Part shown: positions 28,463 to 41,937 of the stretch, one piece after another | Position numbering within the stretch: position 1 is the stretch's first letter | Layout: each line of letters opens with the position of its first letter | Assembly (NCBI GenBank): GCA_951813515.1 | Contig: OX638346.1 | Location: 735,617 to 799,616, forward strand | Reading direction: 5' to 3' | DNA length: 64,000 nt | Origin: an uncultured Pseudomonadales bacterium | Lineage (GTDB): Bacteria; Pseudomonadota; Gammaproteobacteria; Pseudomonadales; Azotimanducaceae | Position numbers and translations under genes: made by a program | The notes under the pieces: model-generated | What the model was told of the DNA's origin: nothing | Database searches by the model: none | What the model saw: the letters and a program-made list of their open reading frames with translations, nothing else

Positions 28463-29728
28463 ATGAAAAGACAGTCGATGCACACCGACCGAAGCAGGCG
28501 CGTACTCGCGCATGGGGTCGGACTGTGGGAAGCGGCCAGTCGAGGGGCCGCGTATAACCCCTTGTCGAGGCGCGTCATACAGAACCCGTACAGGGTCTAT
28601 GCAGCGCTTCGCCGGCGCAGCCCGGTGCATCGAAGCACCATCCTCGGAAGCTGGGTGTTGACGCGGTACGAGGACGTCGTCGCAGCCGCAAGGAATCATG
28701 AGCGTTTCTCGAACAATCCGAGGTGGCGGGGGGCGACGACGAGCGTGCTGCCGCCCGCTCCCGACGACTACAGCATTCTGCTCATGGATCCACCTGATCA
28801 TTCGCGCCTGCGCAGGGTTGCCGCCCGGGCATTCACCAGGTCGCGCCTCGCGGTACTGGGCGAGACGATCGCGCGCACGGCCGCAGAACTCGTCGAGCGG
28901 GCCGCGCGGCAGCGCACCATCGACTGGATGTCCGAAGTGGCTGCCCCCCTTTCCATGCGCGTGATGCTGACCATGATGGGTCTCCCCCCGGGAGATCGTG
29001 GCCGTTGGGCGGCGTGGGTTCCAGAGCGCGCGCGGTTGCTCGAGATGATCGCCACGCGCCGGGAACGCAGGACGGCGCATCAAGCGGGGGACGAGATACA
29101 ACGGTATTTCAGGGCGTTACTGCAACGTCGCCGAAGTTCCGACGACGAGGATGCGATCAGCACGTTCGCCAGGCAGGTCGATGCGGGGGACGAAATCAGC
29201 ATGCCCGAAGCCTGCGACATGTTGAGCGTGCTGATGATTGCCGGAAACGAGACGACGACCAATCTGATAGGCAACGGCATGCTGGCGCTATTGCGCCATC
29301 CCGAACAGATGCAGCGCCTGCGGGAAGAACCGGTTCGGATACAGGATGCGATTGACGAGATGCTGCGGTTCGACAGTCCCGTGCAGACCGATTTTCGAAT
29401 CGCCAAGGCAGAGGTGACCATGCGGGAACGCACGATCAGGCCGGGCGATGGAGTGATCCTGCTGACGGGATCGGCGAACCGGGACGAGGCGGCGTTCGAG
29501 AATCCGGACGCCTTTGACATTGCACGCAAGGGCCCCAGGCACACGTCGTTCGGAACCGGCGTCCACTACTGCATCGGCGCGGAACTCGCTCGCATGGAGG
29601 CGAGCACGATTTTCGCCGAGGCGCTGCGTTCGACCAGCGTGATCAGACTCTCCGACGAGCCGCACTATCGGCCATCGACGGTAATCCGGGGACTTGCCGC
29701 ACTGCCGGTGAACCTTGAGCGGAAATAG
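28463..29728 (+). CDS. cytochrome P450
   Basis: Heme loop FGTGVHYCIGAELARME, I-helix AGNETTTN, ExxR (EMLRF). Start at the ATG at 28463 (MKRQSM). Confidence 0.9.
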   Translation: MKRQSMHTDRSRRVLAHGVGLWEAASRGAAYNPLSRRVIQNPYRVYAALRRRSPVHRSTILGSWVLTRYEDVVAAARNHERFSNNPRWRGATTSVLPPAPDDYSILLMDPPDHSRLRRVAARAFTRSRLAVLGETIARTAAELVERAARQRTIDWMSEVAAPLSMRVMLTMMGLPPGDRGRWAAWVPERARLLEMIATRRERRTAHQAGDEIQRYFRALLQRRRSSDDEDAISTFARQVDAGDEISMPEACDMLSVLMIAGNETTTNLIGNGMLALLRHPEQMQRLREEPVRIQDAIDEMLRFDSPVQTDFRIAKAEVTMRERTIRPGDGVILLTGSANRDEAAFENPDAFDIARKGPRHTSFGTGVHYCIGAELARMEASTIFAEALRSTSVIRLSDEPHYRPSTVIRGLAALPVNLERK

Positions 29729-29731
29729 CCG

Positions 29732-30010
29732 CTAGTACCGAATATCAAAGCTGGCCGGCGGCTGCTCGTCGACGTCTTCCACCTCCACCGCGTCCACCCG
29801 AGCGAGCGCCGGACCGCGCCATGCCCAATCCAGCAGCGCTTCGACGGACCCCGGCGCTCCGCTCGCGAGAAACAGGACCCGCCCGTCGGGACTGTTCCGC
29901 ACCCATCCGGATAGACCCAGGGACGTGGCCTCGCGCAGGAGGGATATTCGATAGGCCACACCCTGCACCCGGCCCGATACCGATCCTCGCACGGTTCTGG
30001 TGGAACCCAT
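29732..30010 (-). CDS. acylphosphatase
   Basis: VSGRVQGVAYRISLLREATSLGLSGWVRNSPDGRVLFLASGAPGSVEALLDW is the classic acylphosphatase signature. Start at MGSTRTV. Confidence 0.85.
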   Translation of the reverse strand: MGSTRTVRGSVSGRVQGVAYRISLLREATSLGLSGWVRNSPDGRVLFLASGAPGSVEALLDWAWRGPALARVDAVEVEDVDEQPPASFDIRY

Positions 30011-30119
30011 GGTTGACGCATCCCAACTGCAACGAGGCAAGAAGACTACAATACCGTTCGGACCGAGGCCGGGCCGGGAGTTCCCCGCCCTGTTGCGCAA
30101 CCGGAGCGTTGCCCATAGG

Positions 30120-30136
30120 ATGTCATAATATGTCAT
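30120..30136. promoter_or_regulatory. AT-rich 17-mer ATGTCATAATATGTCAT (site 1), overlapping the RBS-ATG of speD
   Basis: Identical at 16 of 17 positions to 36239..36255. It lies in the acylphosphatase/speD divergent intergenic region, and the speD ATG (30130) is inside the second half-site. Confidence 0.5.
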
Positions 30137-30528
30137 TGTCCAATAACGCTGGCGGTCGCCATGTCCTGATCGAGTCTTTCGGCGGCCATGCCGGTCTGGA
30201 TGCCCCGGCGCTCAAGCGCCTGCTGCGCCGTGCCGCGCGCGCGGGAGGCGCGAACGTGCTGTCATGCCATATGCACGGGTTCGGAACCGACGGGGGCGTC
30301 ACCGGCGTTGCGTTGCTGGCCGAATCTCACATCACGGTTCACACCTGGCCGGAACGGTCGTACGCGGCATTCGATGTGTTCATGTGCGGCACCTGCAATG
30401 CCGACCGCGCGGCAGAGGAGATCGCGCGCGCGGTACCGGATGCCCGGCTGAGCATTCGCGCCCTGGATCGACCGGCCCCGGAAACTGCGTCGCGACAGCA
30501 TGAGGCAGAGGAGGCAGCGGGTAAATGA
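30130..30528 (+). CDS. speD: S-adenosylmethionine decarboxylase proenzyme (small bacterial class)
   Basis: GRHVLIESFGG...VTGVALLAESHITVHTWPERSYAAFDVFMCG contains the E-S-H self-processing (pyruvoyl-forming) site and the TWPE motif. Confidence 0.85.
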   Translation: MSLSNNAGGRHVLIESFGGHAGLDAPALKRLLRRAARAGGANVLSCHMHGFGTDGGVTGVALLAESHITVHTWPERSYAAFDVFMCGTCNADRAAEEIARAVPDARLSIRALDRPAPETASRQHEAEEAAGK

Positions 30529-31481
30529 CGCGCGTCCCGGCAATGCTCCGTCCCAATGCCCTGGTCGCAGGCGTGCTCTGTGCGGCACTTCTCTCGATCG
30601 CGGGATGCGACAGTGGCGCGGCGGCGCGCGAACGGGCCGAACGCGCGGACGATGAAGTCAAATCGATGCTGTCGCGACTGCGCCAGGATCTCGCGCGAAA
30701 CCGCGTCCCCAACGCGGCCCTGATCCTGTCGTACGCCGACCGGCTCACCCGCGCCAAGCCCGAGCTGAAACCGATTGCCGACGTCTTGCGACGCGAAGGA
30801 ACTACCGACGGCAGGCTGTACCAGGGGCTCACCAAGCGGCTTGAGGAAAACCGCTCCGCATTCCCGCCGCCCGACGCGCCCGCGAAGGCTTACGAACCCA
30901 TCCTCTCGGAATACGCATCGCTACGCGCGGCAGCCGACCCGGAAGAATACAGCCGCGCGCTCAGCGACCCGCTCAATGCTCTCGCCGACTTGTCCGACGG
31001 CAGGCTGCCTCGGGTCGATTCCATCAGCGCCAGCGCCTCGCGCCGCGCCAACGCCGCAGACTCCCAGGGCCCGGGCGGTCAGTTGGTCGGCAATCCCCAT
31101 TATGGCTCCTGGCGCACCGATTCGAGCGGCACCTCGTTCTGGGTCTGGTACGGCCAGTACGCGCTGATCAGCAGCCTCCTCGGAGGTCCCCGCATCGGCT
31201 ACGGCGCCTGGTCCGGCCGGCGCGACTATAGCTACTACCACGACTGGGGACGCGACACCTACACGTCACCGTCGGACAGGCGGCGACAGAACCAGGTCGA
31301 GTCCGGCGCGAGGCGCAAGTTCGCATCGGAAGGCCGGACCTTTCGCAGCCCCTACGTCAGGCAGCGCCAGGGCGCTTCCTCCCGAATCGTCAAACAGAAG
31401 GCATTCGCCAGTGGACGCGGCAGCTTTTCGTCCACGCGCGGATTCGGCGGCGGTTCGCGAGGTCCAATCAGAGGCAAATAG
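30525..31481 (+). CDS. lipoprotein, C-terminal half YjfM/DUF1190-like
   Basis: Lipobox LLSIAG/C. Its ATG overlaps the speD stop (ATGA). The C-terminal TSFWVWYGQYALISSLLGG...RGFGGGSRG recalls E. coli YjfM (SFW..GY..GG, RGGFG...SRSMGG). The family call is from memory only. Confidence 0.6.
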   Translation: MTRVPAMLRPNALVAGVLCAALLSIAGCDSGAAARERAERADDEVKSMLSRLRQDLARNRVPNAALILSYADRLTRAKPELKPIADVLRREGTTDGRLYQGLTKRLEENRSAFPPPDAPAKAYEPILSEYASLRAAADPEEYSRALSDPLNALADLSDGRLPRVDSISASASRRANAADSQGPGGQLVGNPHYGSWRTDSSGTSFWVWYGQYALISSLLGGPRIGYGAWSGRRDYSYYHDWGRDTYTSPSDRRRQNQVESGARRKFASEGRTFRSPYVRQRQGASSRIVKQKAFASGRGSFSSTRGFGGGSRGPIRGK

Positions 31482-31494
31482 AGAGGTCAAGCAA

Positions 31495-32391
31495 ATGTTC
31501 GACTCGGTGAGTATCTGGATCTGGGCCATCGTCGTGCTGGACCTCGTGGTTGCCGTCGTGGCGATATGCGCCCTGCGGTACGTGTCCGGACTGCTGTTCG
31601 GCGTCGATTCGCGGAACGAACTCGCCGAAAAGGACAACCTCGCCTTCGGGCTGACCCTCGCTGGTGGCGCTGGCGCGGTGGCGCTGGTGCTGGCAGCCGC
31701 GACCGCCGGCGACCCCGCTATCGATTTCGCTGAGGAACTTGGCGTGGTCGCGCTCTACGCGGTGCTCGGACTGGTGCTGTTGAAGGTCGGAATGCTCATC
31801 AACGACTGGGTCGTCTTCAACGAGTTCTCCCTGAAGGACGCGATCAACGGCGGCAACGCCGCCGCCGGTACGGCCCAGGCCGCAAACCTGATCGCCATCG
31901 GCGTCCTCGTGAACGCCGCGATCGGCTATTCCGAGGGTGACCTCGCCACCGCCGTGGCGACGGTGGTCATCGTGTTCCTCCTGGCACAGATCGTCCTGCT
32001 CGGGGTCACGCGGCTGCGAGGGCTCATCTACGCGAAACGCAACGAGGGCGCCAAGTGGCAGGCCGCGATCGACGGCGGCAACACGGCGCTTGGGGTCCGC
32101 TATGCCGGGCACCTGATCGGCACCGCCCTTGCGGTGTCCGCGGCGGGTGGAATGATCGTCTACCTGGTGCCGCCTGACGCCGGGATGGTCGCCTTGTACG
32201 CGGCCCTGCTCGGCCTGGCGGTCGTTCTCGCCGGCGTGTTGCTGCTACTGTCGATGCTGGCGCAACGCGCCATCCTGCACGGCATCGATGTCGTCGAGGA
32301 AGTCGACGTTCAGGCGAACATAGGCGTGGCCGCCATCGAAGCCGCGGTGTTCATCGGCGTCGGGCTGGTGATGCATGCGGTCATCGGCTGA
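31495..32391 (+). CDS. DUF350 (YjfL-like) membrane protein with four repeats
   Basis: MFDSVSIWIWAIVVLDLVVAVVAICALRYVSGLL... The acidic-loop/N-x-A-x-G motif occurs four times (ELAEKDNLAFGL, LKDAINGGNAAAG, AIDGGNTALG, EEVDVQANIGVA), each followed by a TM helix. Confidence 0.75.
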   Translation: MFDSVSIWIWAIVVLDLVVAVVAICALRYVSGLLFGVDSRNELAEKDNLAFGLTLAGGAGAVALVLAAATAGDPAIDFAEELGVVALYAVLGLVLLKVGMLINDWVVFNEFSLKDAINGGNAAAGTAQAANLIAIGVLVNAAIGYSEGDLATAVATVVIVFLLAQIVLLGVTRLRGLIYAKRNEGAKWQAAIDGGNTALGVRYAGHLIGTALAVSAAGGMIVYLVPPDAGMVALYAALLGLAVVLAGVLLLLSMLAQRAILHGIDVVEEVDVQANIGVAAIEAAVFIGVGLVMHAVIG

Positions 32392-32485
32392 AACCTGAGA
32401 CATACGCGCGAGGTTCAGCACGGCCGTCAGGCAGTTTCTCGTCGCGAGCGCTGCGCGGGCAAGGATCTCGTCGAGGCCGGGTTGA

Positions 32486-34207
32486 ATGGCTAACGACAGC
32501 GCACGCGTTCGCCGCCACGATACGGTACTGATTGGCGCGATCGGACTGGTCGCCGCCTGCGGACTGGTCTACGAGTACCTCCTAGCGCACTATGCCGGTC
32601 GCATTCTGGGCGCCGTCGAGCCGACGGTGTACGCGATGATCGGCCTGATGATCGTCGCCATGGGGTGCGGCGCGCTGGCCGCCAGATGGATTTCTTCGAT
32701 CTACAGGGGCTTCGCCTGGCTGGAACTGGGGATCGGCATCCTCGGCGGGACGTCCATTCTGCTTCTGTCCGGCGCGGTGGCGCTTGCCTACTCCCTGCCC
32801 GAATGGCTGCGCACGGTCTACAACCTCGACGCTGCCATCGTCGTCGACGGGGGGCTCGCCGCAATGCTGCTCCAGTCAGCGCGCGTACTGCCGTTCGTGG
32901 TCGGGTTCATCATCGGGTTCCTGATCGGCATGGAGATACCGCTGATCGCGCGGGTGCGCGAGCACATCCACCAACGGCGCCTGGAACACAACCTGGGCGC
33001 CATGTACGGTGCCGACTACATCGGGGCGGGCATCGGCGCCGCCATATGGGTCGCGATCTGTCTCAGGATTCCGATCATCTATGCGGCGGTGGGTACCGCC
33101 GCTGTCAACACGCTGGTCGGCATCGCCTTCCTCTCCATCTACCGCCGCCAGTTGCGACCCTCCACGCGCCTCTGGATCGGACACGGACTGCTTGCCGGCC
33201 TACTCGTCGTGCTGGCCGTATTCGGCACCCAGTGGACCACGCGGCTCGGCGACACGCTGTTCCAGGACCGCGTGGTCTACCGGCTGCAGACCCCCTATCA
33301 GAACGCCGTAATCACCAAGCGGCACGTGGCCCGGGGCAAGCCGGACGTGCTCAGCTTGTACCTGAACGGGCGACTGCAGTTCGCGTCCAACGACGAGCGC
33401 ATCTATCACGCCTACCTCACGTCCCCGGCGATGGTGGCCACTTACCGGCGCGAGCGGCTATTGGTCCTCGGCGGCGGCGATGGTCTGGCACTTCGTGACC
33501 TGCTGCGGTGGAATCCGGACTCGGTCACGCTGATCGACATCGATGCCGAAGTCGTCGGCCTGTTCTCCGGCAAGGATCCGAACGCGCCCGCGTGGCTGAG
33601 CCAAACCCTGGTCGAACTCAACGAGGGCGCGTTCGCCGATCCCCGCGTCGTCGTCGTCCAGGCCGACGCCTTCATCGAGGTCGAAAGGCTTGCCGCCGAA
33701 GGCGAGACCTTCGACGTCGTGGTGGTCGACCTGCCGGACCCCGGCCACCCGGACCTGAACCGTCTTTACAGCGACTATTTCTATGCCCGGATCGGCCAGT
33801 TGCTGTCGCCCGACGGTGTGCTCGCCTTGCAGTCGACATCACCGTTCCATGCCAAGTCGGCCTTCCTCTCGATCGGTAAGACGGTCTCGCACGTCGGCTT
33901 CAACACCGAGCAGTTTCACGCCAACGTGCCGAGTTTCGGCGAATGGGGATGGACCATCGGCACCCTGCGCGGGAAACCCGCTTCAGAACGCATTGCCGGC
34001 GCCGAGGCCGGGCCGACGCCGGACGGCTGGCTCGACCGCGAGCAGATCCTGGCCGCATTCGCCTTCCCCAACGGCTACTACGCGGACCTCGACGACGTGC
34101 GGATCAACCGCCTCGGCAGCCACGTCGTCTATGGCTATCACCAGGAAGCGCTGCAGGAATACCGGGGCGTCTTCTTCGCCGGCCGCTCCGGTAACCGACC
34201 GAGGTAG
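32486..34207 (+). CDS. membrane-fused spermidine synthase-like aminopropyltransferase
   Basis: 573 aa. The N-terminal ~230 aa are multi-TM. The C-terminal part has RLLVLGGGDGLALRDLLRW, TLIDIDAEVV and DVVVVDLPDPGHPDLNRLYSDYFY, the spermidine synthase fold motifs. Confidence 0.8.
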   Translation: MANDSARVRRHDTVLIGAIGLVAACGLVYEYLLAHYAGRILGAVEPTVYAMIGLMIVAMGCGALAARWISSIYRGFAWLELGIGILGGTSILLLSGAVALAYSLPEWLRTVYNLDAAIVVDGGLAAMLLQSARVLPFVVGFIIGFLIGMEIPLIARVREHIHQRRLEHNLGAMYGADYIGAGIGAAIWVAICLRIPIIYAAVGTAAVNTLVGIAFLSIYRRQLRPSTRLWIGHGLLAGLLVVLAVFGTQWTTRLGDTLFQDRVVYRLQTPYQNAVITKRHVARGKPDVLSLYLNGRLQFASNDERIYHAYLTSPAMVATYRRERLLVLGGGDGLALRDLLRWNPDSVTLIDIDAEVVGLFSGKDPNAPAWLSQTLVELNEGAFADPRVVVVQADAFIEVERLAAEGETFDVVVVDLPDPGHPDLNRLYSDYFYARIGQLLSPDGVLALQSTSPFHAKSAFLSIGKTVSHVGFNTEQFHANVPSFGEWGWTIGTLRGKPASERIAGAEAGPTPDGWLDREQILAAFAFPNGYYADLDDVRINRLGSHVVYGYHQEALQEYRGVFFAGRSGNRPR

Positions 34208-34214
34208 CCAGCGT

Positions 34215-36017
34215 TCAGGCGATCTCGGCTCTGGCCTCCAGGTCGTCGATGAAACCGAGCGACTGCATGTCGAACAGGCGCCGGTATTGTCCCCGGGGCC
34301 GCGCCATCAGCTCCTCGTGATTCCCCTCTTCCACGATCCGGCCGCTGTCGAAGACGAGGATCCGGTCCACGTTCCGCACCGTCGAGAGGCGGTGCGCCAC
34401 GACGATGGCCGTACGACCTTTCAGAAGGTTGGCGATCGCATCTTGGATCAGGTACTCCGTGATGGAGTCGAGGCTCGAGGTGGCTTCGTCGAGGATCAGG
34501 ATCGGTGCATCGGCGAGGATGGCGCGCGCGATCGCCACGCGCTGCCGCTCGCCGCCGGAGAGCTTGACGCCTCGCTCCCCGACCAGCGTGTCGTATCCTG
34601 CCCCAAGCCTGCCGATGAAATCGTCCGCGTGCGCCTTCTTCGACGCTGCGACCACTTCGTCGAAGGTTGCTTCGGGCCGCCCATACGCGATGTTCTCCCG
34701 TAGCGAGCGGTGAAACAGGATGGGCTCCTGCGGCACCAGGGCGATGCCCCGGCGCAGGCTTTCCTGCGTGACTGCCGCAATGTCCTGTCCATCGACGAGG
34801 ACGCAACCCGTCTCCACGTCGTAGAGACGCTGCAGCAGTTTCACGAACGTGGTCTTGCCGGAACCGGACTCACCGACCAGCGCGACCTTCTCCCCGGCAG
34901 CGATTTCAAGACAGAAGTCGTCAAAGATCGCCTTCGGCTGATTGCTGTACGTGAAACCAACGTTTCGAAATCGAATCGTGCCCGCACCCGGCTGGAAGTC
35001 GGGAGCGTTCAGACGGTTCGATACCTGTGGCGCCGTCTTCGAGATCTTCACAAGATCGTCCAACTCGTTCACCGCCCGCTGCAGGCTGCGGATTTCCCAG
35101 CCGAGTTCGCGCAGATACCCGTTGACGATGAAGTACGCCGTGATGACGTAGACCATGTCGGCCAGCACGGTGGCACCGTCAGCCGCACGACCCAACGCGA
35201 TCGCCAACAGCCCGCCGAGCATCGCGATGATGAGCACCGACTGCACTGCGACCGGATCCATGCTCCGCGTCCACGCCGCACAGGCACGTCGTTGCCAATG
35301 CGAAGACACGTCGTGCAGCAGGCGGTCTTCGCGATGCTCCGCTCCGAATGCCTTGACCACAGAGTTGCAGGTAATCGAATCGGCCAGCGCCCCGCCCATC
35401 TTCGTATCCGCATCGTTCGAAAGCCGGTTTGCTGGAGCCACCCACGACAGGGACATCCATATGCTGACGCCGACGAACAGCGCAACGGAAACCGCGAAGT
35501 AAAGCCCCATCATGGGCTCGCGCAGGAACATCCCGATCGACAGCGCGACGAGCAGGATCAACGTCGGGCCGAGTTGCACGACCACGACATCGGCAAAGTT
35601 GTCGTAGGCCCACATGCCCCGCGTGACCTTGCGCACCGTGGCACCCGCGAACGCGTTCGCATGCCAGTCCGCGCTGAACCGCTGCAGCGCGCGGAAACCA
35701 TCCATGACGATCACCTGCATGGCTTCGGCGGCGAAGTACATCCACACCCGAAAGTACGCCTGTTGCACCAGGGATACGAGGGCCAGGATTCCAAGCAGCC
35801 AGAAAGCCGCGCTCCAGGCCTCAGCAAGGGCAGAGGGACCTTCCCCGATGTGCAACACCGCGGTCACCAGTTCCGCAGACCGGTCGGGAATCTGGACTTC
35901 GAGCAGGATGCTCACCACCACGCCGGCAAGGATCAGCGCGAACTTCGCCGGTTGCTGCCGCCAGTAGCTCCAGACAAAAAGAAAAACCTCGGTAAACGAG
36001 ACCGCTCGGTCGAACAT
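34215..36017 (-). CDS. ABC exporter, fused permease/ATPase (MsbA-like)
   Basis: Walker A GESGSGKTT, signature LSGGERQRVAIARA, Walker B ILILDEATSSLD, and a six-TM N-terminal half. Confidence 0.9.
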   Translation of the reverse strand: MFDRAVSFTEVFLFVWSYWRQQPAKFALILAGVVVSILLEVQIPDRSAELVTAVLHIGEGPSALAEAWSAAFWLLGILALVSLVQQAYFRVWMYFAAEAMQVIVMDGFRALQRFSADWHANAFAGATVRKVTRGMWAYDNFADVVVVQLGPTLILLVALSIGMFLREPMMGLYFAVSVALFVGVSIWMSLSWVAPANRLSNDADTKMGGALADSITCNSVVKAFGAEHREDRLLHDVSSHWQRRACAAWTRSMDPVAVQSVLIIAMLGGLLAIALGRAADGATVLADMVYVITAYFIVNGYLRELGWEIRSLQRAVNELDDLVKISKTAPQVSNRLNAPDFQPGAGTIRFRNVGFTYSNQPKAIFDDFCLEIAAGEKVALVGESGSGKTTFVKLLQRLYDVETGCVLVDGQDIAAVTQESLRRGIALVPQEPILFHRSLRENIAYGRPEATFDEVVAASKKAHADDFIGRLGAGYDTLVGERGVKLSGGERQRVAIARAILADAPILILDEATSSLDSITEYLIQDAIANLLKGRTAIVVAHRLSTVRNVDRILVFDSGRIVEEGNHEELMARPRGQYRRLFDMQSLGFIDDLEARAEIA

Positions 36018-36238
36018 GGGAGCCTCTCCAGTGCCAACATGCCGAGCCGCCGAAAGACCCCCCGCAAGGGGGCTGGCGGAACGAAGCGCGCGATAATGAT
36101 CCTATGGTCCCCAAAGTCAAGGCCGAGTAAGCAAATTTCGCGCACCGATTTGCGGACTCTCGGCAATTCCCGCCTAGCCCGTTGATCGAAGACCCTTCGA
36201 GTGCTTCAGCGAACGCCCGTCCAACTAACGCTTGACCG

Positions 36239-36255
36239 ATGACATAATATGTCAT
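36239..36255. promoter_or_regulatory. AT-rich 17-mer ATGACATAATATGTCAT (site 2), perfect 7-3-7 inverted repeat
   Basis: ATGACAT-aat-ATGTCAT lies in the ABC-exporter/yjfI-like divergent region, 65 nt upstream of the ATG at 36320. Confidence 0.5.
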
Positions 36256-36319
36256 AGTGTGCTTTCGACAGTTACCGCTGTCGGCGGGAACGACCACAAA
36301 GGAAACTGGGAGATACGCG

Positions 36320-36721
36320 ATGACCTTGGACGAGCTGGCCTTCCGGCTGAATGATTTCGACGGCGAGGAAGGCACCACCTTCGATGCGCTCGTGACGGAG
36401 CAAGATATCCTGGAGGTCACCTGCTCGAACAACGACGAATTCCCCATCCACGTCACCCAGACCGAGACGCAGATCCTCGCGGTGACACCCCTTTTCAACA
36501 TTTCCGAAGTCGAGCCCGACAATATCGAGGAGCTCAATGCGATTTTCCTGCGCCTGAGCCCCGCCGTGCCGCTGTCATCCATCGGCTTGCAGGGAGAGAC
36601 CTACATTCTCTTCGGCGCCATGGCGCTGTCGACGCGGTTCGAGGTGATCGCCCACGAACTCGAGGTCCAGGCGGAAAACACCATCGACGTCCTCGAAGCA
36701 GTGGAACACCTGCTGGCCTGA
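36320..36721 (+). CDS. YjfI/DUF2170-like protein
   Basis: EFPIHVTQTETQILAVTPLFNISEV...LNAIFLRLSPAVPLSSIGLQGETYILFGAM fits the remembered DUF2170 pattern. Its position directly before a PspA/IM30 gene matches E. coli yjfI-yjfJ. Confidence 0.6.
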   Translation: MTLDELAFRLNDFDGEEGTTFDALVTEQDILEVTCSNNDEFPIHVTQTETQILAVTPLFNISEVEPDNIEELNAIFLRLSPAVPLSSIGLQGETYILFGAMALSTRFEVIAHELEVQAENTIDVLEAVEHLLA

Positions 36722-36782
36722 ACCGAATTCAGGGGATTCACGCGACAAACCGAAGCAAAGCAACACGAGAGAGGCAAACAAC

Positions 36783-37478
36783 ATGGGTGTACTGAAAGAC
36801 CTGATGCAGGCCGTGAGAGGAGGCGCCAACGAAGTCGGCGAGGCTATTGTCGACGCCAACGCCATTCGCATTCTCGAACAGGAGATTCGCGACGCCGAGT
36901 CGGCGATAGCCAGCGCAAAGCAGAGCCTGACGCGCATGAAGAGTTCCGAGATTGGCCTCAAGCGGGATCTGTCCACCTTGGGCGCGGACATCGCCGACTA
37001 CGAGCAGAAGGCTATCGCGGCACTCAACGCCGGCGAGGAGGCACTCGCGACCGAGGTCGCCGAGCGCATCGCCGAACTGGAAGGCGAGCGCGACGACAAG
37101 GCCGGCGAACAGGCGGCACTGAACGAGGAGGTCAACAAGATCCACGCCATGATCAAGGCCCGGGAGCGAACCATCCAGAAGAACAAGCGTGAACTGGACA
37201 AGGTGCGAACGGTACAGGAGCTGCAGCGCGCCACGGAAAGCGTCTCGCGCAACTTCGCCGCGACGGGATCGAAGGGACACCGGGTATCCCAGGCGCTCGA
37301 CCGCGTGAAGGCCAAGCAGCAGAACTGGCAGGACCGCATGGAAGCCGGGGAATGGCTGGAGTCGCAGGAAGGTGTCGACGACATCGACGCGAAACTGAAG
37401 GCCAAGGGAATCGGCGCTTCGGGCGCGTCGGCGGGATCGGACGTTCTCGCGCGGCTCAAGGCCAGGCAATCGGGCTGA
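36783..37478 (+). CDS. PspA/IM30 family protein (YjfJ-like)
   Basis: MGVLKDLMQAVRGGANEVGEAIVDANAIRILEQEIRDAESAIASAKQSLTRMK is followed by a long coiled-coil. Confidence 0.85.
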   Translation: MGVLKDLMQAVRGGANEVGEAIVDANAIRILEQEIRDAESAIASAKQSLTRMKSSEIGLKRDLSTLGADIADYEQKAIAALNAGEEALATEVAERIAELEGERDDKAGEQAALNEEVNKIHAMIKARERTIQKNKRELDKVRTVQELQRATESVSRNFAATGSKGHRVSQALDRVKAKQQNWQDRMEAGEWLESQEGVDDIDAKLKAKGIGASGASAGSDVLARLKARQSG

Positions 37479-37485
37479 CCGAGCC

Positions 37486-38133
37486 GTGCTTCGAAAAATA
37501 CTCAGGAGCCGTTTCGGCAAGCGCGACGACGACTCGCCGCGCCAACTGTCCGGTCCGGGCGATCTCGCGGCCGGCGACCTCCTGACGTTCAAGCACCGCC
37601 TGCTCCTGCCGCCGGAGGTCCAGGGACAGACGTTCGAGGTCAGCTCGGTGGGCGCGTATCACTTCGAAGACGGCCTCTACGCCGAACTTACCCTGGACGG
37701 AACCGGCGGAGACCGGGTCTATCTCGGGTTCGACGCCGGTGACGCAAGCCAAATGTCCCTTTCCCGAACGGTGCCCCGTGCCGATGTGTTGCGGCTCTTC
37801 GACGAGGATGCGTTCGCCGCGCTGTGGGACGAAGACTTCGCCCAACTTGAGGTGACCGATCCCCTTCCAAAGTACGAGGGATGGATAGCGGACCGCTACG
37901 CGCAGACGAAGAAGTGGGCCGAGGGCTACTACTACGACCGCGACTGTCGCGGCGAAACGCCATCGCGGCTGCAGGACGACGATGCCGAGGAACTGCGTTG
38001 CCACGAATGCGAGGATGACTCCGGTCGCTATGGCCTCAGCGTCGAGGTCTCGGCGGACGGCGAGACGGAAGTGTTCGCCGAAGTGAACTGCCCGCCGGAC
38101 GTCATCGAGTCGATGTGGCCGGGCCAGGGATGA
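37486..38133 (+). CDS. YjfK/DUF2491-like protein (call mainly by synteny)
   Basis: 215 aa, 8 nt after the pspA-like stop. GDLLTFKHRLLLPPEVQGQTFEVSSVGAYHFEDGLYAELTLDG. The family assignment is tentative. Confidence 0.5.
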   Translation: MLRKILRSRFGKRDDDSPRQLSGPGDLAAGDLLTFKHRLLLPPEVQGQTFEVSSVGAYHFEDGLYAELTLDGTGGDRVYLGFDAGDASQMSLSRTVPRADVLRLFDEDAFAALWDEDFAQLEVTDPLPKYEGWIADRYAQTKKWAEGYYYDRDCRGETPSRLQDDDAEELRCHECEDDSGRYGLSVEVSADGETEVFAEVNCPPDVIESMWPGQG

Positions 38134-38471
38134 GCGCATCTTCGCGTCGCGCCGTCCGCGAACCGAAGCCGGGGCGGTTTCAGGCTGAACGGCAGGCGCT
38201 GCGGAAGATCCAGGTTCACTTCGAGTTCCGCCAGTCGCTGCTGCGCAAGGTCCGCCTCGCCGCGGCGGCGGCGGACCTGAGCTATTCCGACTACGTGAGA
38301 AAACTCGTGGGGCTGCCCTTCTCCAAGATACAGCGCCCGCGCATCAGCCTGTCCTTCAGCGATTCCGACCTCCGCGTCCTCGCAGAGCGTTACGCCAAGC
38401 CGGATGCCGACCCGCAAGCCCTGAAACGTTGCGTGCTGGAAGAGATCGAGTCACAACTGGACGACGCGTAA
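38130..38471 (+). CDS. small protein with two ribbon-helix-helix-like segments
   Basis: Its ATG overlaps the upstream stop (ATGA at 38130..38133). KIQVHFEFRQSLLRKVRLAAAAADLSYSDYVRKLVGL and RISLSFSDSDLRVLAERYAKPDADPQALKRCVLEEI both look like beta-strand/helix/helix units. Confidence 0.55.
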   Translation: MSASSRRAVREPKPGRFQAERQALRKIQVHFEFRQSLLRKVRLAAAAADLSYSDYVRKLVGLPFSKIQRPRISLSFSDSDLRVLAERYAKPDADPQALKRCVLEEIESQLDDA

Positions 38472-38561
38472 GCCATCATCCCGTCGCATTGAAGCACTCG
38501 GCATCGCCCTGATAGTCTCTTCGGCGATGCGACTGTCGCGATAACCCCCTTGCCTGCCCCT

Positions 38562-39653
38562 ATGCTCTGGCGACTCCTGCGCCGACGGCGATACCTGCGC
38601 TACACGCGGTACGTCGCCGGCGCGATCAAGCGGCGCCTGTATCTGACGGCCGCCCTGTTCGCGGGACTGTTCTGCCTGCACGTGGTGGCGATGATCGTGT
38701 TCGAGGACATGACCCCCGGCGATGCCGCGTGGCTCACGATGACCACCGCGACGACGGTCGGCTACGGCGACGCTTCCGCTGTCACAGCCGCCGGGCGATT
38801 GGCCACGGTGGTGTGCATCTATGTCTTCGGAACCTTCCTGCTGGCGCAGATCGCCACGTACATATTCGACTATCGCGCGCTGCAACGGGATCGCCGGCGG
38901 CGCGGGGAAATCAGGTGGAGCAACATGAAAGATCATCTGCTGGTAATCAACGTCCCGGCCCAGGACGCCGAGAACTACCTGCCGCGGCTGGTGGACCACG
39001 TCCGGCGTGCGCCGCGCCTCGGCGACATTCCGATACAGTTGCTGACGCCCGACTTCGAGGACGGCCTGGGCAACGAACTCGTCGATGCCGGCGTCACCCT
39101 GTACCGCGCCATGGCCGAGAACTCCGAGAACCTGGCCGCAGCCAACGTCAGCCACGCGCGCTGCATCATCATCGTCGCCGACGAAATCTACGATGCCCGC
39201 TCGGACGCGCACACGTACGACATCCTCGGCCGCATCCGCGAGTTGGGAACGCAAGCCACCATCGTGGCCGAGGTCGTGGATGACGCAAACCGCCAACGCA
39301 TCCTCGAAGCCGGCGCCACCACCGTGATCCGACCGATCCGCGCCTACCCGGAATTCGTCGTGCGCGCGTTGACCGCGCCCGGCGTCGAACAGGTGCTGGA
39401 AACGATGTTCACCCACGAAGCCGGACGGCTGGCGCGGTTCGACGCGCACTTCGAGGGGCTGCTCTGGCGCGACGTGGTGGTGAGTTTCGCGCGCGGCAAC
39501 GCCGGCATCCCGATGGGCTACTTCGACCAGCGCGGCGTACATACAAACCCCGCCCCGGACGAGGTCTGCAGCGGCCACGGCATCATCACGCTGATCAACG
39601 ACAGCCTCAATGTGACGCCTATGCTTGTGGAGTCGTGCCTGCGGGCGTCCTGA
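38562..39653 (+). CDS. two-TM potassium channel with RCK/TrkA-N domain
   Basis: Selectivity filter TTATTVGYGD, followed by the Rossmann-like region HLLVINVPAQDAENYLPRLV. Confidence 0.85.
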   Translation: MLWRLLRRRRYLRYTRYVAGAIKRRLYLTAALFAGLFCLHVVAMIVFEDMTPGDAAWLTMTTATTVGYGDASAVTAAGRLATVVCIYVFGTFLLAQIATYIFDYRALQRDRRRRGEIRWSNMKDHLLVINVPAQDAENYLPRLVDHVRRAPRLGDIPIQLLTPDFEDGLGNELVDAGVTLYRAMAENSENLAAANVSHARCIIIVADEIYDARSDAHTYDILGRIRELGTQATIVAEVVDDANRQRILEAGATTVIRPIRAYPEFVVRALTAPGVEQVLETMFTHEAGRLARFDAHFEGLLWRDVVVSFARGNAGIPMGYFDQRGVHTNPAPDEVCSGHGIITLINDSLNVTPMLVESCLRAS

Positions 39654-39673
39654 GAGAGCGACGGGAGGACACG

Positions 39674-40051
39674 ATGTCACAGGATTCCACACGCACGGGG
39701 CAGTTCGGCCTTGTCGGGACCAAGTTCATGCTGTCCGCGCAGGACATGGATCGAGCCGTCGCGTTCTACCGCGACGTGATCGGGCTCGACCTCACGGTAA
39801 GCTCGCCCTGGTGGAGCGAGCTGACCTTCGGCACGGCGATCATCGCGCTGCACGGAGGCGGCAGCGGAGAGTTCAGGCGCACCGGACTCTCGTTCACGGT
39901 GGAGGACATCGATGCCGCGTGCGAGGCGGTGACCCAGGGAGGCGGTCGCGTCCGGTCCGGTCCGGAGGATCGCGGCGATGAAGGCATCTACCTCGCCGAA
40001 CTCACCGACCCGGAGGGCAACGGATTCATGATGAGTCAGAACAAACCGTGA
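39674..40051 (+). CDS. VOC (glyoxalase/bleomycin-resistance) family protein
   Basis: DMDRAVAFYRDVIGLDL...LTDPEGNGFMM. Confidence 0.8.
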   Translation: MSQDSTRTGQFGLVGTKFMLSAQDMDRAVAFYRDVIGLDLTVSSPWWSELTFGTAIIALHGGGSGEFRRTGLSFTVEDIDAACEAVTQGGGRVRSGPEDRGDEGIYLAELTDPEGNGFMMSQNKP

Positions 40052-41937
40052 CGGGCGGGATGCTCCAGCACGCGCGTGACCTGCTGCGGGAGGTCTACGG
40101 CTATACCGACTTTCGCGACGCCCAGGAAGAGGTCCTCGCCGCCGCGCTCGCAGGCCGCGACACCCTGGTCGTCATGCCCACGGGCGCCGGCAAGTCCCTG
40201 TGCTACCAGTTGCCCTCCATCATGCGGCCGGGAACCGGTCTCGTCGTCTCGCCGCTCATCGCGTTGATGCAGGACCAGGTCGGCGCCCTGCGGCAACTCG
40301 GCGTTCGTGCCGCGTTCCTGAATTCGACCCTCGCGTACGACGAGCAATGGCGCATCATCGAAGCAGTGCGGGCAGGCGCGCTCGACTTGCTGTATCTCGC
40401 ACCGGAGCGTCTGTTGCAGGAAGACACGTTGTCCCTCCTCGCGGGCGTCGACCTGTCCCTGATCGCCATCGACGAGGCGCACTGCGTATCGCAATGGGGC
40501 CACGACTTCCGCCAGGACTATCTCGGTCTTGACGTATTGCGCGACCGGTTCCCGGGCGTTCCGCGCATGGCGCTGACGGCCACGGCGGACGCCACCACGC
40601 GCGACGATATCCTGGCGAAGCTTGCGTTCGACTCCGGGGCCAAGCGCTTTGTCAGCGGTTTCGACCGGCCCAACATCCGCTACACCGTGCGCGCGAAGAC
40701 CGACGCCAACGCCCAGTTGCGCGCCTTTCTCGAAGAGCGCCGCGGTGAAGCGGGAATCGTCTACGCGATGACGCGCAAGAAAACGGAATCGATCGCGGAA
40801 ATGCTGAACGCGCGCGGGTTCACCGCGCTGCCCTACCATGCCGGCTTGCCCGGCGATGTCCGCGCCACATCACAGGGCCGGTTCCTGCGCGAGGACGGTG
40901 TCATCGTTGTCGCCACGATCGCGTTCGGCATGGGCATCGACAAGCCCGATGTCCGTTTCGTCGCCCACGTGGACCTGCCGAAGAGTGTCGAGGCCTACTA
41001 CCAGGAAACCGGCCGGTCCGGCCGCGACGGCGAGCCGGCGGAAGCATGGATGGTCTATGGTTTGCAGGACGTGGTTCGAATGCGCCAGATGGTGGACATG
41101 TCCGAGGCCGACGATCAGCACAAGCGGATCGAACGCGGCAAGCTCGACGCCCTGCTCGGCTGGTGCGAGGTGACGACTTGCAGACGCCGCGCGCTGCTCC
41201 GGCACTTCGGCGACGATCTCCCGGAGGACTGCGGCAATTGCGACGTGTGCCTGACGCCGCCCGAGACGCAGGACGGCACCACCGCGGCGCAGAAGCTCCT
41301 CTCCGCCATCTATCGCACCGGCCAGCGCTTCGGAGCGGGCCACGTGATCGACGTCCTGCGCGGCAAAGACACGGAGAAGATTCGCCAATGGGGGCACGAA
41401 CGGTTGAGCACCTACGGTATCGGGGCCGACCTCTCGGTCACCGAGTGGCGCTCGTTCGTGCGCCAGCTCATGGTCCAGGGATTCGTGCGCGCCGACGACG
41501 CACGCTTCGGAGCGCTGCGTCTGACGGCCGACGCCAGGGCCGTGCTGCGCGGCGAAAGGACGGTGCGGCTACGCAAGGATGCATCCGTCAAACCCCGTGT
41601 CCGGACCGTCAGCCAGCGGGAAGTGTTCGAAGTCGATCCCAAGGACCAGGACCTTTGGGAAACGCTGCGGCAGTGCCGTCGGGACCTGGCGGAGGAGGCG
41701 GGCGTGCCGCCCTATGTGATCTTCCACGACGCGACGCTGAAGGAGATGCTGCATCGGCGTCCGGTCTCCCTCGAGGAGATGCTGGCCATACACGGCGTCG
41801 GCCAAGCTAAACTTGAGCGCTACGGCGCGGCATTTCTCGACGCCCTACACGGAGAGGAGAACCCTGAGCCTGCTGGCGCCCCGGGGAGCTCATCACAAGG
41901 AGAGATACGGGAGGAGCTATCGTGGCAGGACCACTAG
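40048..41937 (+). CDS. recQ: ATP-dependent DNA helicase RecQ
   Basis: MPTGAGKSLCYQLP, DEAHCVSQWGHDFR, the zinc-binding CRRRALLRHFGD..CGNCDVC, and a C-terminal HRDC domain (PPYVIFHDATLKEM). The GTG overlaps the VOC stop. Confidence 0.95.
   Translation: MTGGMLQHARDLLREVYGYTDFRDAQEEVLAAALAGRDTLVVMPTGAGKSLCYQLPSIMRPGTGLVVSPLIALMQDQVGALRQLGVRAAFLNSTLAYDEQWRIIEAVRAGALDLLYLAPERLLQEDTLSLLAGVDLSLIAIDEAHCVSQWGHDFRQDYLGLDVLRDRFPGVPRMALTATADATTRDDILAKLAFDSGAKRFVSGFDRPNIRYTVRAKTDANAQLRAFLEERRGEAGIVYAMTRKKTESIAEMLNARGFTALPYHAGLPGDVRATSQGRFLREDGVIVVATIAFGMGIDKPDVRFVAHVDLPKSVEAYYQETGRSGRDGEPAEAWMVYGLQDVVRMRQMVDMSEADDQHKRIERGKLDALLGWCEVTTCRRRALLRHFGDDLPEDCGNCDVCLTPPETQDGTTAAQKLLSAIYRTGQRFGAGHVIDVLRGKDTEKIRQWGHERLSTYGIGADLSVTEWRSFVRQLMVQGFVRADDARFGALRLTADARAVLRGERTVRLRKDASVKPRVRTVSQREVFEVDPKDQDLWETLRQCRRDLAEEAGVPPYVIFHDATLKEMLHRRPVSLEEMLAIHGVGQAKLERYGAAFLDALHGEENPEPAGAPGSSSQGEIREELSWQDH

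Follow-up and report, generated by a model that had tools for sequence, protein, structure and literature searches.

Does a gene cluster that places a PspA-type membrane-protection block beside an S-adenosylmethionine (AdoMet) decarboxylase and a membrane-fused, spermidine-synthase-like enzyme represent a rewired version of the Escherichia coli yjfIJKLMC cluster, or a system of another kind? The cluster occupies positions 30130-39653 of a 64,000-nucleotide stretch of DNA (the window; contig OX638346.1, positions 735,617 to 799,616 of the forward strand, assembly GCA_951813515.1) from an uncultured Pseudomonadales bacterium of the Azotimanducaceae. A preliminary description made from the sequence of the window had read it as a complete YjfI/J/K/L/M-like module, split into two operons and rewired to AdoMet decarboxylase and a membrane-bound spermidine synthase, and had known of no characterisation of the combination. 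The locus is probably a member of a known, experimentally uncharacterised envelope system, consisting of two co-repressed units with an aminopropyl acceptor other than putrescine, and carrying an ATP-binding cassette (ABC) exporter as a passenger; this assignment is made because the gene set published for one group of such operons matches that of the window.

Gene content and published counterparts

Open reading frames (ORFs) for all products of both putative operons were present where the preliminary description had placed them. Two transcription units, both on the forward strand, are proposed from the sequence. Unit A would comprise speD (30130-30528; class 1b AdoMet decarboxylase proenzyme, 132 amino acids (aa)), a lipoprotein gene (30525-31481; 318 aa), a gene for a tandem DUF350 (YjfL-like) membrane protein with about eight transmembrane (TM) helices (31495-32391; 298 aa), and a gene for a 573-aa fusion of a 7TM domain to a SpeE-like aminopropyltransferase (32486-34207). 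Unit B would comprise genes for a DUF2170/YjfI-like protein (36320-36721; 133 aa), a PspA/IM30 protein of the YjfJ type (36783-37478; 231 aa), a DUF4178-family protein (37486-38133; 215 aa), a small ribbon-helix-helix (RHH)-like protein (38130-38471 from its ATG, open from a GTG at 38115), and a K+ channel (38550-39653). Two ATGA overlaps were read from the sequence, one between speD and the lipoprotein gene, as previously described, and one between the stop of the 215-aa protein and the ATG of the small ORF at 38130. An MsbA-like ABC exporter half-transporter is encoded between the units on the minus strand (34215-36017), and it and the channel gene following the small ORF were likewise correctly recognised in the preliminary description.

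In the accessible part of Ravi et al. 2024 (PMC11237479; mSystems 9:e00847-23), three operon groups are described around a CesT/Tir(DUF2170)-PspA dyad. In group 2, exemplified by Shewanella oneidensis AAN56744-AAN56747, a 7TM-spermine/spermidine-synthase-like fusion is accompanied by an 8TM form of DUF350, a DUF4178 protein, a lipoprotein described as novel and, in some cases, an RHH protein at the end, and this set agrees with the window gene for gene; group 3, the E. coli type, contains an ATP-grasp ligase, DUF1190, DUF2491, a 4TM DUF350 protein and a K+ channel. For the link to AdoMet decarboxylase the same part of that paper cites Li et al. 2019, and it proposes "aminopropylation of other substrates". 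Judged through the papers that cite it, the study of Li, Kurihara, Kim, Liang and Michael (2019; Biochem J 476:2579) places speD beside a membrane-fused SpdSyn-like protein and DUF350, as in the window, and it is cited in both PMC11237479 and PMC12803844 for a function of this fusion context beyond polyamine synthesis. The gene combination itself is thus already described, and what is new here is the operator, the two-promoter layout, the separable halves, the recurrent K+ channel and the topology puzzle set out below. Group 2 is presented in the accessible text as a single operon of six to seven genes, whereas the halves in the window are parted by the opposite-strand ABC exporter; in the window cluster speD is the first gene and the last encodes a K+ channel, which that text lists for group 3 and not for group 2, so that the recurrence of the channel in group-2-type clusters is added by the present analysis. 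Within the literature searched, DUF4178 was mentioned by Ravi et al. alone, and no experiments addressing the complete system came to light.

Gene order in related genomes

For comparison, one genome per species was scanned with an alignment of the lipoprotein, giving 80 loci, which were annotated with the window proteins, and 70 of these could be classified for gene order. Most came from metagenome-assembled genomes (MAGs) of Pseudomonadales and Candidatus Azotimanducaceae, and the others from Thalassotalea, Catenovulum, Psychromonas, Endozoicomonas and a few alphaproteobacterial MAGs; the closest relative (OY764266.1) encodes a lipoprotein 97% identical to that of the window. The canonical order, with all genes co-directional, was (SpeD)-lipoprotein-DUF350-TMSpeE-DUF2170-PspA-DUF4178-RHH-(K+ channel), where TMSpeE denotes the membrane-fused enzyme. 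SpeD was not encoded beside the lipoprotein gene in Alteromonadales-type loci, and in many relatives module B closed with the K+ channel gene, which came after the RHH gene in many loci of Pseudomonadales and in copies of module B that are unlinked.

The TMSpeE|DUF2170 junction was contiguous (gap of at most 400 bp) in 45 of the 70 loci, and insertions of 0.7-6.1 kb were found at this single junction in 13, with cargo that differed between lineages. No module B was found within at least 5 kb in the remaining 12; for two of these genomes it was traced through the DUF4178 protein, and in both an intact DUF2170-PspA-DUF4178-RHH-K+ channel block shared a chromosome with module A, at distances of 0.32 Mb and about 2 Mb (L084 (OZ251530.1) and L086 (OY282447.1), against L038 and L031). 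The two halves can be separated and yet occur together. That the blocks belong together, as had been proposed, is borne out by their adjacency in most relatives, their co-occurrence when unlinked and the operator that they share, and the neighbourhood of TMSpeE with DUF350 and DUF2170-PspA proved to be conserved. That they are unrelated operons, neighbours by chance, might be argued from the opposite-strand gene between them in the window and their wide separation in some genomes, but this is made extremely improbable by the adjacency kept in 45 loci of several orders, by the operator common to both blocks and by same-chromosome co-occurrence.

The split itself, which the preliminary description had presented with the rewiring as a special event, does not stand out in this comparison, since contiguous clusters too have a second promoter-like region with an operator 5' of the DUF2170 gene, and the gene that parts the modules in the window is a clade-specific insertion. 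This gene, the ABC exporter (PF00005 and PF00664 matches; no NCBIfam match above cutoff), was limited to the nearest relatives of the window (L004, L006, L008, L009 and L012). It could be seen as an integral component that exports the aminopropylated product, the operon having been split to accommodate it, as it stands exactly between the modules, shares the 300-bp divergent intergenic region with the module B operator, and is kept in these five species-level relatives. We consider this very unlikely, because 65 of the 70 classifiable loci, those of the close relatives L005 and L010 among them, lack the exporter, unrelated genes occupy the same junction in other lineages, and the 97%-identical relative has added a PhdYeFM/ParE pair there. 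The differing cargo and this pair mark the A|B junction as an insertion hot spot. The exporter, confined to the closest relatives, was rejected as a member of the system; on comparative sequence evidence it is a passenger gene, a lineage-only insertion at the A|B junction, and not part of the core. Core genes and passenger genes are separated by the comparison as a whole. The PhdYeFM/ParE pair of OY764266.1 lies between the ABC gene and the DUF2170 gene (L002/L004 15691-16282, equivalent to about 36018-36320 of the window) and is absent from the window.

A palindrome shared by both modules

A 13-bp palindrome, GACATAWTATGTC, was found at the start of both modules, inside promoter-like sequences. 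Upstream of module A (promoter-like region and operator, 30093-30134, forward strand), a -35-like TTGCGC (30093-30098) and a -10-like TAGGAT (30116-30121) are separated by a 17-nt spacer, and the palindrome copy GTCATAATATGTC (30122-30134) follows immediately after the -10-like hexamer and contains the speD ATG. Upstream of module B (36232-36260, forward strand), a -35-like TTGACC (36232-36237) and a -10-like TAGTGT (36255-36260) are again separated by 17 nt, and the palindrome copy GACATAATATGTC (36241-36253) lies between them; the 300-bp region 5' of the DUF2170 gene holds the palindrome ATGACATAATATGTCAT. A scan with consensus promoter and terminator patterns was uninformative in this GC-rich DNA, and the promoter-like hexamers came only from cross-species alignment of the upstream regions.

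Across the 64-kb window, where 0.22 matches to GACATAWTATGTC (at most two mismatches) would be expected, two were found, one at the start of each module; as many as two were reached in 1 of 100 shuffles. In the related loci, 133 matches (at most one mismatch) were found in 1.47 Mb against about 3.9 expected, and 131 of these immediately preceded the first gene of one or other module (83 upstream of DUF2170, 36 of SpeD, and 12 of a lipoprotein gene without SpeD, with 2 elsewhere). The palindrome was kept across Pseudomonadales, Alteromonadales and one alphaproteobacterial MAG, and its register was kept as well: in module B, TTGACn and TAnnnT flank a 17-nt spacer with the palindrome across orders, and in module A, TTGCnn or TTGACn is followed after about 17 nt by TAnnnT and immediately by the palindrome across clades. 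Alteromonadales loci had two copies about 35 bp apart 5' of DUF2170, and the unlinked module B loci L084 and L086 retained the palindrome. The shared operator and the two-promoter layout, of which the accessible text of Ravi et al. gives no description, are new in the present analysis.

The palindrome encloses the speD ATG in the window's clade, where this codon stands 9 nt past the -10-like TAGGAT. The arrangement implies a very short leader or none, and the speD transcript may accordingly be leaderless or carry few leader bases. An AGGA stands 9 nt 5' of the speD ATG and could serve as a ribosome-binding site only with a transcription start further upstream.

The candidate regulator

The 113-aa product of the small ORF is the sole candidate DNA-binding protein in the cluster and is present in almost all loci. 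In the family alignment it contains two tandem strand-helix-helix units (KIQVHFEF... and PRISLSFS...), and could be a single-chain pseudo-dimer of RHH type. Of the preliminary identification as an overlapping small RHH-like protein, the ORF and its ATGA overlap stood; the fold received matches below Pfam thresholds for the window protein (RHH_10 0.069, CopG 0.093) and RHH_10 matches in 5 of 18 relatives (best 8e-5), and a profile of the family gave no match among PDB sequences. A symmetric operator variant, GCCATAWTATGGC, was found in one clade of 5 loci, all of which have V, T or S at position 6 of the RHH strand; among the loci with a GAC-type operator and a readable strand (about 53), E or D is found there in all but L061. 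Strand position 6 and position 2 of the operator thus vary together, and this tracking fits binding of the palindrome by the small protein.

The palindrome might instead be bound by a regulator encoded elsewhere, or be a mere promoter element, with the small protein serving another role such as that of a protein-protein adaptor. The sub-threshold RHH match of the window protein, its lack of a PDB sequence match and the missing site at module A of unlinked genomes would suit this explanation. It is nonetheless unlikely, given that the palindrome travels with the cluster across the three lineages named above, that no other protein of the cluster is a candidate for DNA binding, that the strand residue tracks the operator variant, and that the terminal protein is independently named an RHH transcription factor in the accessible part of Ravi et al. 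(PMC11237479). From these sequence comparisons, the cluster's own RHH protein probably binds the palindrome.

The membrane-fused aminopropyltransferase

The fusion protein was divided into a 7TM domain (about residues 14-247) and an aminopropyltransferase domain of the SpeE fold (about residues 250-573), in agreement with the fusion first described. It scored 556 bits against the NCBIfam model NF002956 for polyamine aminopropyltransferase (cutoff 472) and matched PF01564 at 7e-29, and the closest PDB entry to its catalytic domain was the polyamine aminopropyltransferase 7xif (3.7e-25). An exact-sequence look-up of the window protein returned no record. When 72 family members were aligned with E. 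coli SpeE, residues Q272, Y307, H308, G329-G333, D351, D394, D415, D418, P419 and P422 were kept in all or nearly all of them; we take the corresponding E. coli SpeE positions to be Q33, Y63/H64, GGGDG, E108 (Asp here), D140, the catalytic D158, D161, P162 and P165. Since residues of both the decarboxylated AdoMet (dcAdoMet) site and the amine site are conserved, the catalytic domain very probably functions as an aminopropyltransferase whose amine pocket is acidic. Species that carry such fusions reportedly lack spermidine, and the fusion is said to fail to complement an E. coli spermidine synthase mutant; no protein of the lineage of Pseudomonadales and Ca. Azotimanducaceae MAGs is known to have been tested.

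A spermidine product is unlikely for the fusion enzyme, because experiments reported in PMC12803844 showed that bacterial fusions of a membrane protein to an aminopropyltransferase-like domain play no part in spermidine or spermine biosynthesis.

The profile of the fusion family showed seven hydrophobic peaks, with all four K/R-rich loops on the side opposite to the catalytic domain, for which the positive-inside rule predicts a periplasmic catalytic domain. Which side of the membrane the domain faces bears directly on its possible substrate. Residues E80, E150 and D177 are fully conserved acidic residues inside membrane helices, and their position might point to passage of a cationic substrate.

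SpeD, the lipoprotein and the DUF350 protein

The remaining products of module A were assigned by profile searches, alignments and structure models. The preliminary identification of SpeD was upheld, with matches to PF02675 (5e-26) and TIGR03330 (97 bits, cutoff 75.65) and a translation containing the self-processing ESH pyruvoyl site (E65-S66-H67), HTWPE and the active-site Cys within FMCG. The DUF350 assignment also held (PF03994, 2e-39): the protein is a tandem unit of 298 aa, against the single 4TM unit of the 132-aa E. coli YjfL, and its charge pattern (hydropathy and charge profile of 79 family sequences) predicts that the N- and C-termini both lie outside.

The lipoprotein (lipobox IAGC, Asp at +2) belongs to no Pfam family, and its own family comprises 457 representatives at 50% identity (E<=1e-3). 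The proposal that its C-terminal half resembles YjfM/DUF1190 was not supported: DUF1190 was matched by none of 31 close and none of 37 distant members in profile searches (the distant members, at 23-35% identity, were taken from an exhaustive profile search), no significant similarity to E. coli YjfM was found by BLASTP, and hhalign of the family against YjfM/DUF1190 aligned the lipobox alone, while E. coli YjfM as a positive control matched DUF1190 at 3e-17. The N-terminal half is a helical bundle; strong conservation and an abundance of aromatic residues, Gly and Arg mark the C-terminal half. In the AlphaFold2 (AF2) model, residues 30-160 were confident and residues 167-318 had a predicted local distance difference test (pLDDT) score of 31-59, and the model had no meaningful match among PDB folds. 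A C-terminal half that is conserved yet has low pLDDT suggests folding only with a partner, and judged by this model it may fold only against a membrane partner. Weak EAGR_box matches were obtained for 25 of the 31 close and 16 of the 37 distant members. They come from the best-conserved part of the protein, residues ~167-318 (31020-31481), with the pattern QLVGNPHYGxW...SFWVWYGQ...RDYSYYHD...RGFGGGxRGPxRGK. By position, the lipoprotein stands where group 2 of Ravi et al. has its novel lipoprotein ("Ctha_1186 domain").

DUF2170, PspA, DUF4178 and the K+ channel

The YjfI/DUF2170 and PspA/YjfJ assignments of the preliminary description were confirmed for module B. The DUF2170 protein matched PF09938 at 5e-24 and E. 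coli YjfI at 32% identity (BLASTP, 1e-11), with a match to the DUF2170 family protein in PDB entry 8q8o at 0.002; the accessible part of Ravi et al. 2024 (PMC11237479) assigns DUF2170 to the CesT/Tir chaperone-like superfamily. The PspA protein matched PF04012 at 4.8e-37 and E. coli YjfJ at 33% identity over its full length (BLASTP, 3e-24), and gave no match among PDB sequences. The terminal gene encodes a two-TM K+ channel with a TVGYGD filter (PF07885, 5.8e-11) and a cytoplasmic TrkA_N/RCK domain (PF02254, 8.3e-6).

For the 215-aa protein, the proposed YjfK/DUF2491 identity was not sustained. The window protein itself lay below the hmmscan reporting level, without a Pfam match, and 38 relatives at 50-85% identity were searched, of which 20 matched DUF4178 (PF13785, best 1.9e-8) and none matched DUF2491. 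No significant similarity to E. coli YjfK was found by BLASTP, and hhalign against YjfK profiles gave probabilities of 0.5% and 3.8%, the latter with a 19-sequence YjfK profile over the N-terminal 59 columns (E 0.011). Homology to YjfK was rejected, the 3.8% match being too weak, which leaves open a distant relation of DUF4178 to the N-terminus of DUF2491 at the level of sequence. As controls, E. coli YjfK matched DUF2491 at 3e-71, and all six E. coli K-12 YjfIJKLMC proteins strongly matched DUF2170, PspA_IM30, DUF2491, DUF350, DUF1190 and GSP_synth. The AF2 model of the 215-aa protein is all-beta (mean pLDDT 90.9), without a TM segment and cytoplasmic, and had no match among PDB folds. A faint resemblance to YjfK was seen at its N-terminus (37486-37680), at the pattern G-x-x-F-x-V-x-x-V (BLASTP E 0.07).

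Comparison with the yjf cluster and with Pseudomonas aeruginosa loci

The window shares with E. coli yjfIJKLMC the YjfI/DUF2170 and YjfJ/PspA dyad, a lipoprotein, a membrane protein of DUF350, an enzyme related to polyamines and, at the equivalent position, one more cytoplasmic protein. The clusters differ in that DUF2491 (YjfK) is replaced by DUF4178 and DUF1190 (YjfM) by the unnamed lipoprotein family, so that the module cannot be called a complete YjfI/J/K/L/M set, and further in that DUF350 is a 4TM protein in E. coli against about eight TM helices in the window, the ATP-grasp peptide-spermidine ligase YjfC stands against SpeD plus an aminopropyltransferase, and the RHH gene of the window has no counterpart in the yjf cluster. 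Profile searches on the five proteins that had been likened to Yjf products thus upheld DUF2170, PspA and DUF350, and not DUF2491 or DUF1190. The ATP-grasp GSP_synth domain was found in no gene of the window cluster (Pfam profiles), and no homologue of YjfK, YjfM or YjfC (the last by tblastn) was found in the 80 related loci.

A DUF2170-PspA dyad as in the window is also present in the P. aeruginosa bac operon (BacA/PA3732, DUF2170; BacB/PA3731, PspA-like; Wallart et al. 2024), and Wallart et al. mention a context of DUF2170, PspA and a membrane spermidine synthase; the window DUF2170 protein matched the NCBIfam BacA model at 1.3e-10, below its cutoff. The P. aeruginosa speD/speE paralogues PA4773/PA4774, beside pmrAB, likewise combine SpeD with an enzyme of the SpeE type and are linked to protection of the envelope (Johnson et al. 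2012).

That the locus is a rewired, complete yjf module, in which a membrane spermidine synthase replaces the YjfC ligase and delivers spermidine to the membrane or periplasm, like the surface spermidine of PA4773/PA4774, gains from the true homology of the YjfI, YjfJ and YjfL equivalents, from the retention of all spermidine-synthase-type residues with a score above the NF002956 cutoff, and from the annotation of E. coli yjfC as a peptide-spermidine ligase. Against it, profile comparison shows no homology for the K and M equivalents, no YjfK, YjfM or YjfC homologue accompanies any related locus, and the literature has bacterial membrane-aminopropyltransferase fusions uninvolved in spermidine or spermine synthesis (PMC12803844). 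The family tests and these published negative results render it quite improbable. Of the polyamine parallel to the yjf cluster, the presence of an ATP-grasp spermidine ligase in the equivalent place stands, and the spermidine product is the part that does not. The PA4774 enzyme, for its part, is reportedly not membrane-fused, and the pair is said to be under two-component regulation and to be without PspA, DUF350, DUF4178 and lipoprotein partners.

Proposed mechanism and its assessment

Established here are the gene content, families and order, a junction prone to insertions and breaks, modules that occur together, a palindrome common to both, and catalytic residues that are conserved. Beyond this, a mechanism can be drawn for the envelope system to which the locus is assigned. 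The RHH protein from module B would bind the palindrome and co-repress both units; upon induction, SpeD would make dcAdoMet for the membrane enzyme, which would move the aminopropyl group to a putative non-putrescine amine acceptor at the membrane. The lipoprotein and the DUF350 protein would be membrane partners of the enzyme, and the PspA, YjfI and DUF4178 proteins, with the K+ channel, would protect or reset the inner membrane and keep its integrity and ion balance. Candidate acceptors for envelope aminopropylation would be the head group of a lipid, the lipoprotein that partners the enzyme, or some other molecule of the envelope. In its full form, as an inducible envelope-aminopropylation machine with an RHH repressor setting the off-state, stress-driven use of dcAdoMet by a periplasm-facing transferase, and PspA and the K+ channel stabilising the membrane, the proposal is speculative and rather unlikely.

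Several points weigh against the assignment or against parts of it. The predicted periplasmic catalytic domain is hard to reconcile with a cytoplasmic supply of dcAdoMet. The tie between the lipoprotein and the "Ctha_1186 domain" lipoprotein of Ravi et al. is one of position. The RHH fold has weak backing from Pfam (0.07 in the window protein, 8e-5 at best among relatives), and binding by an RHH protein is predicted on that footing. The covariation of operator and RHH strand comes from one clade and may reflect a single evolutionary event. In the genomes with unlinked modules, no palindrome was detectable at module A, and co-regulation is not universal.

The system is widespread, with 457 clusters at 50% identity for the lipoprotein family alone and very many genomes with SpeD plus the fusion reported in the literature, and it ties the conserved PspA membrane-repair machinery to AdoMet chemistry. 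A defined operator and a candidate repressor offer a possible handle for switching it on. Envelope aminopropylation, if true, would add a novel type of chemistry to those that modify the envelope.

Flanking genes and other searches

No match to the classical Psp partners PspF, PspB or PspC was found among the ten cluster proteins (Pfam and NCBIfam profiles), and no RNA element, such as an AdoMet riboswitch, was found in 29000-40500 by an Rfam search. The genes flanking the cluster (DUF3179, P450, glyoxalase, RecQ and CoA-transferase) have no relation to the system. The acylphosphatase gene next to speD was rejected as a member, its position being kept in the closest relatives only (L002-L012); it lies on the minus strand (29732-30019), with transcription directed away from speD, and falls within the interval of the preliminary description, which starts at 29732.

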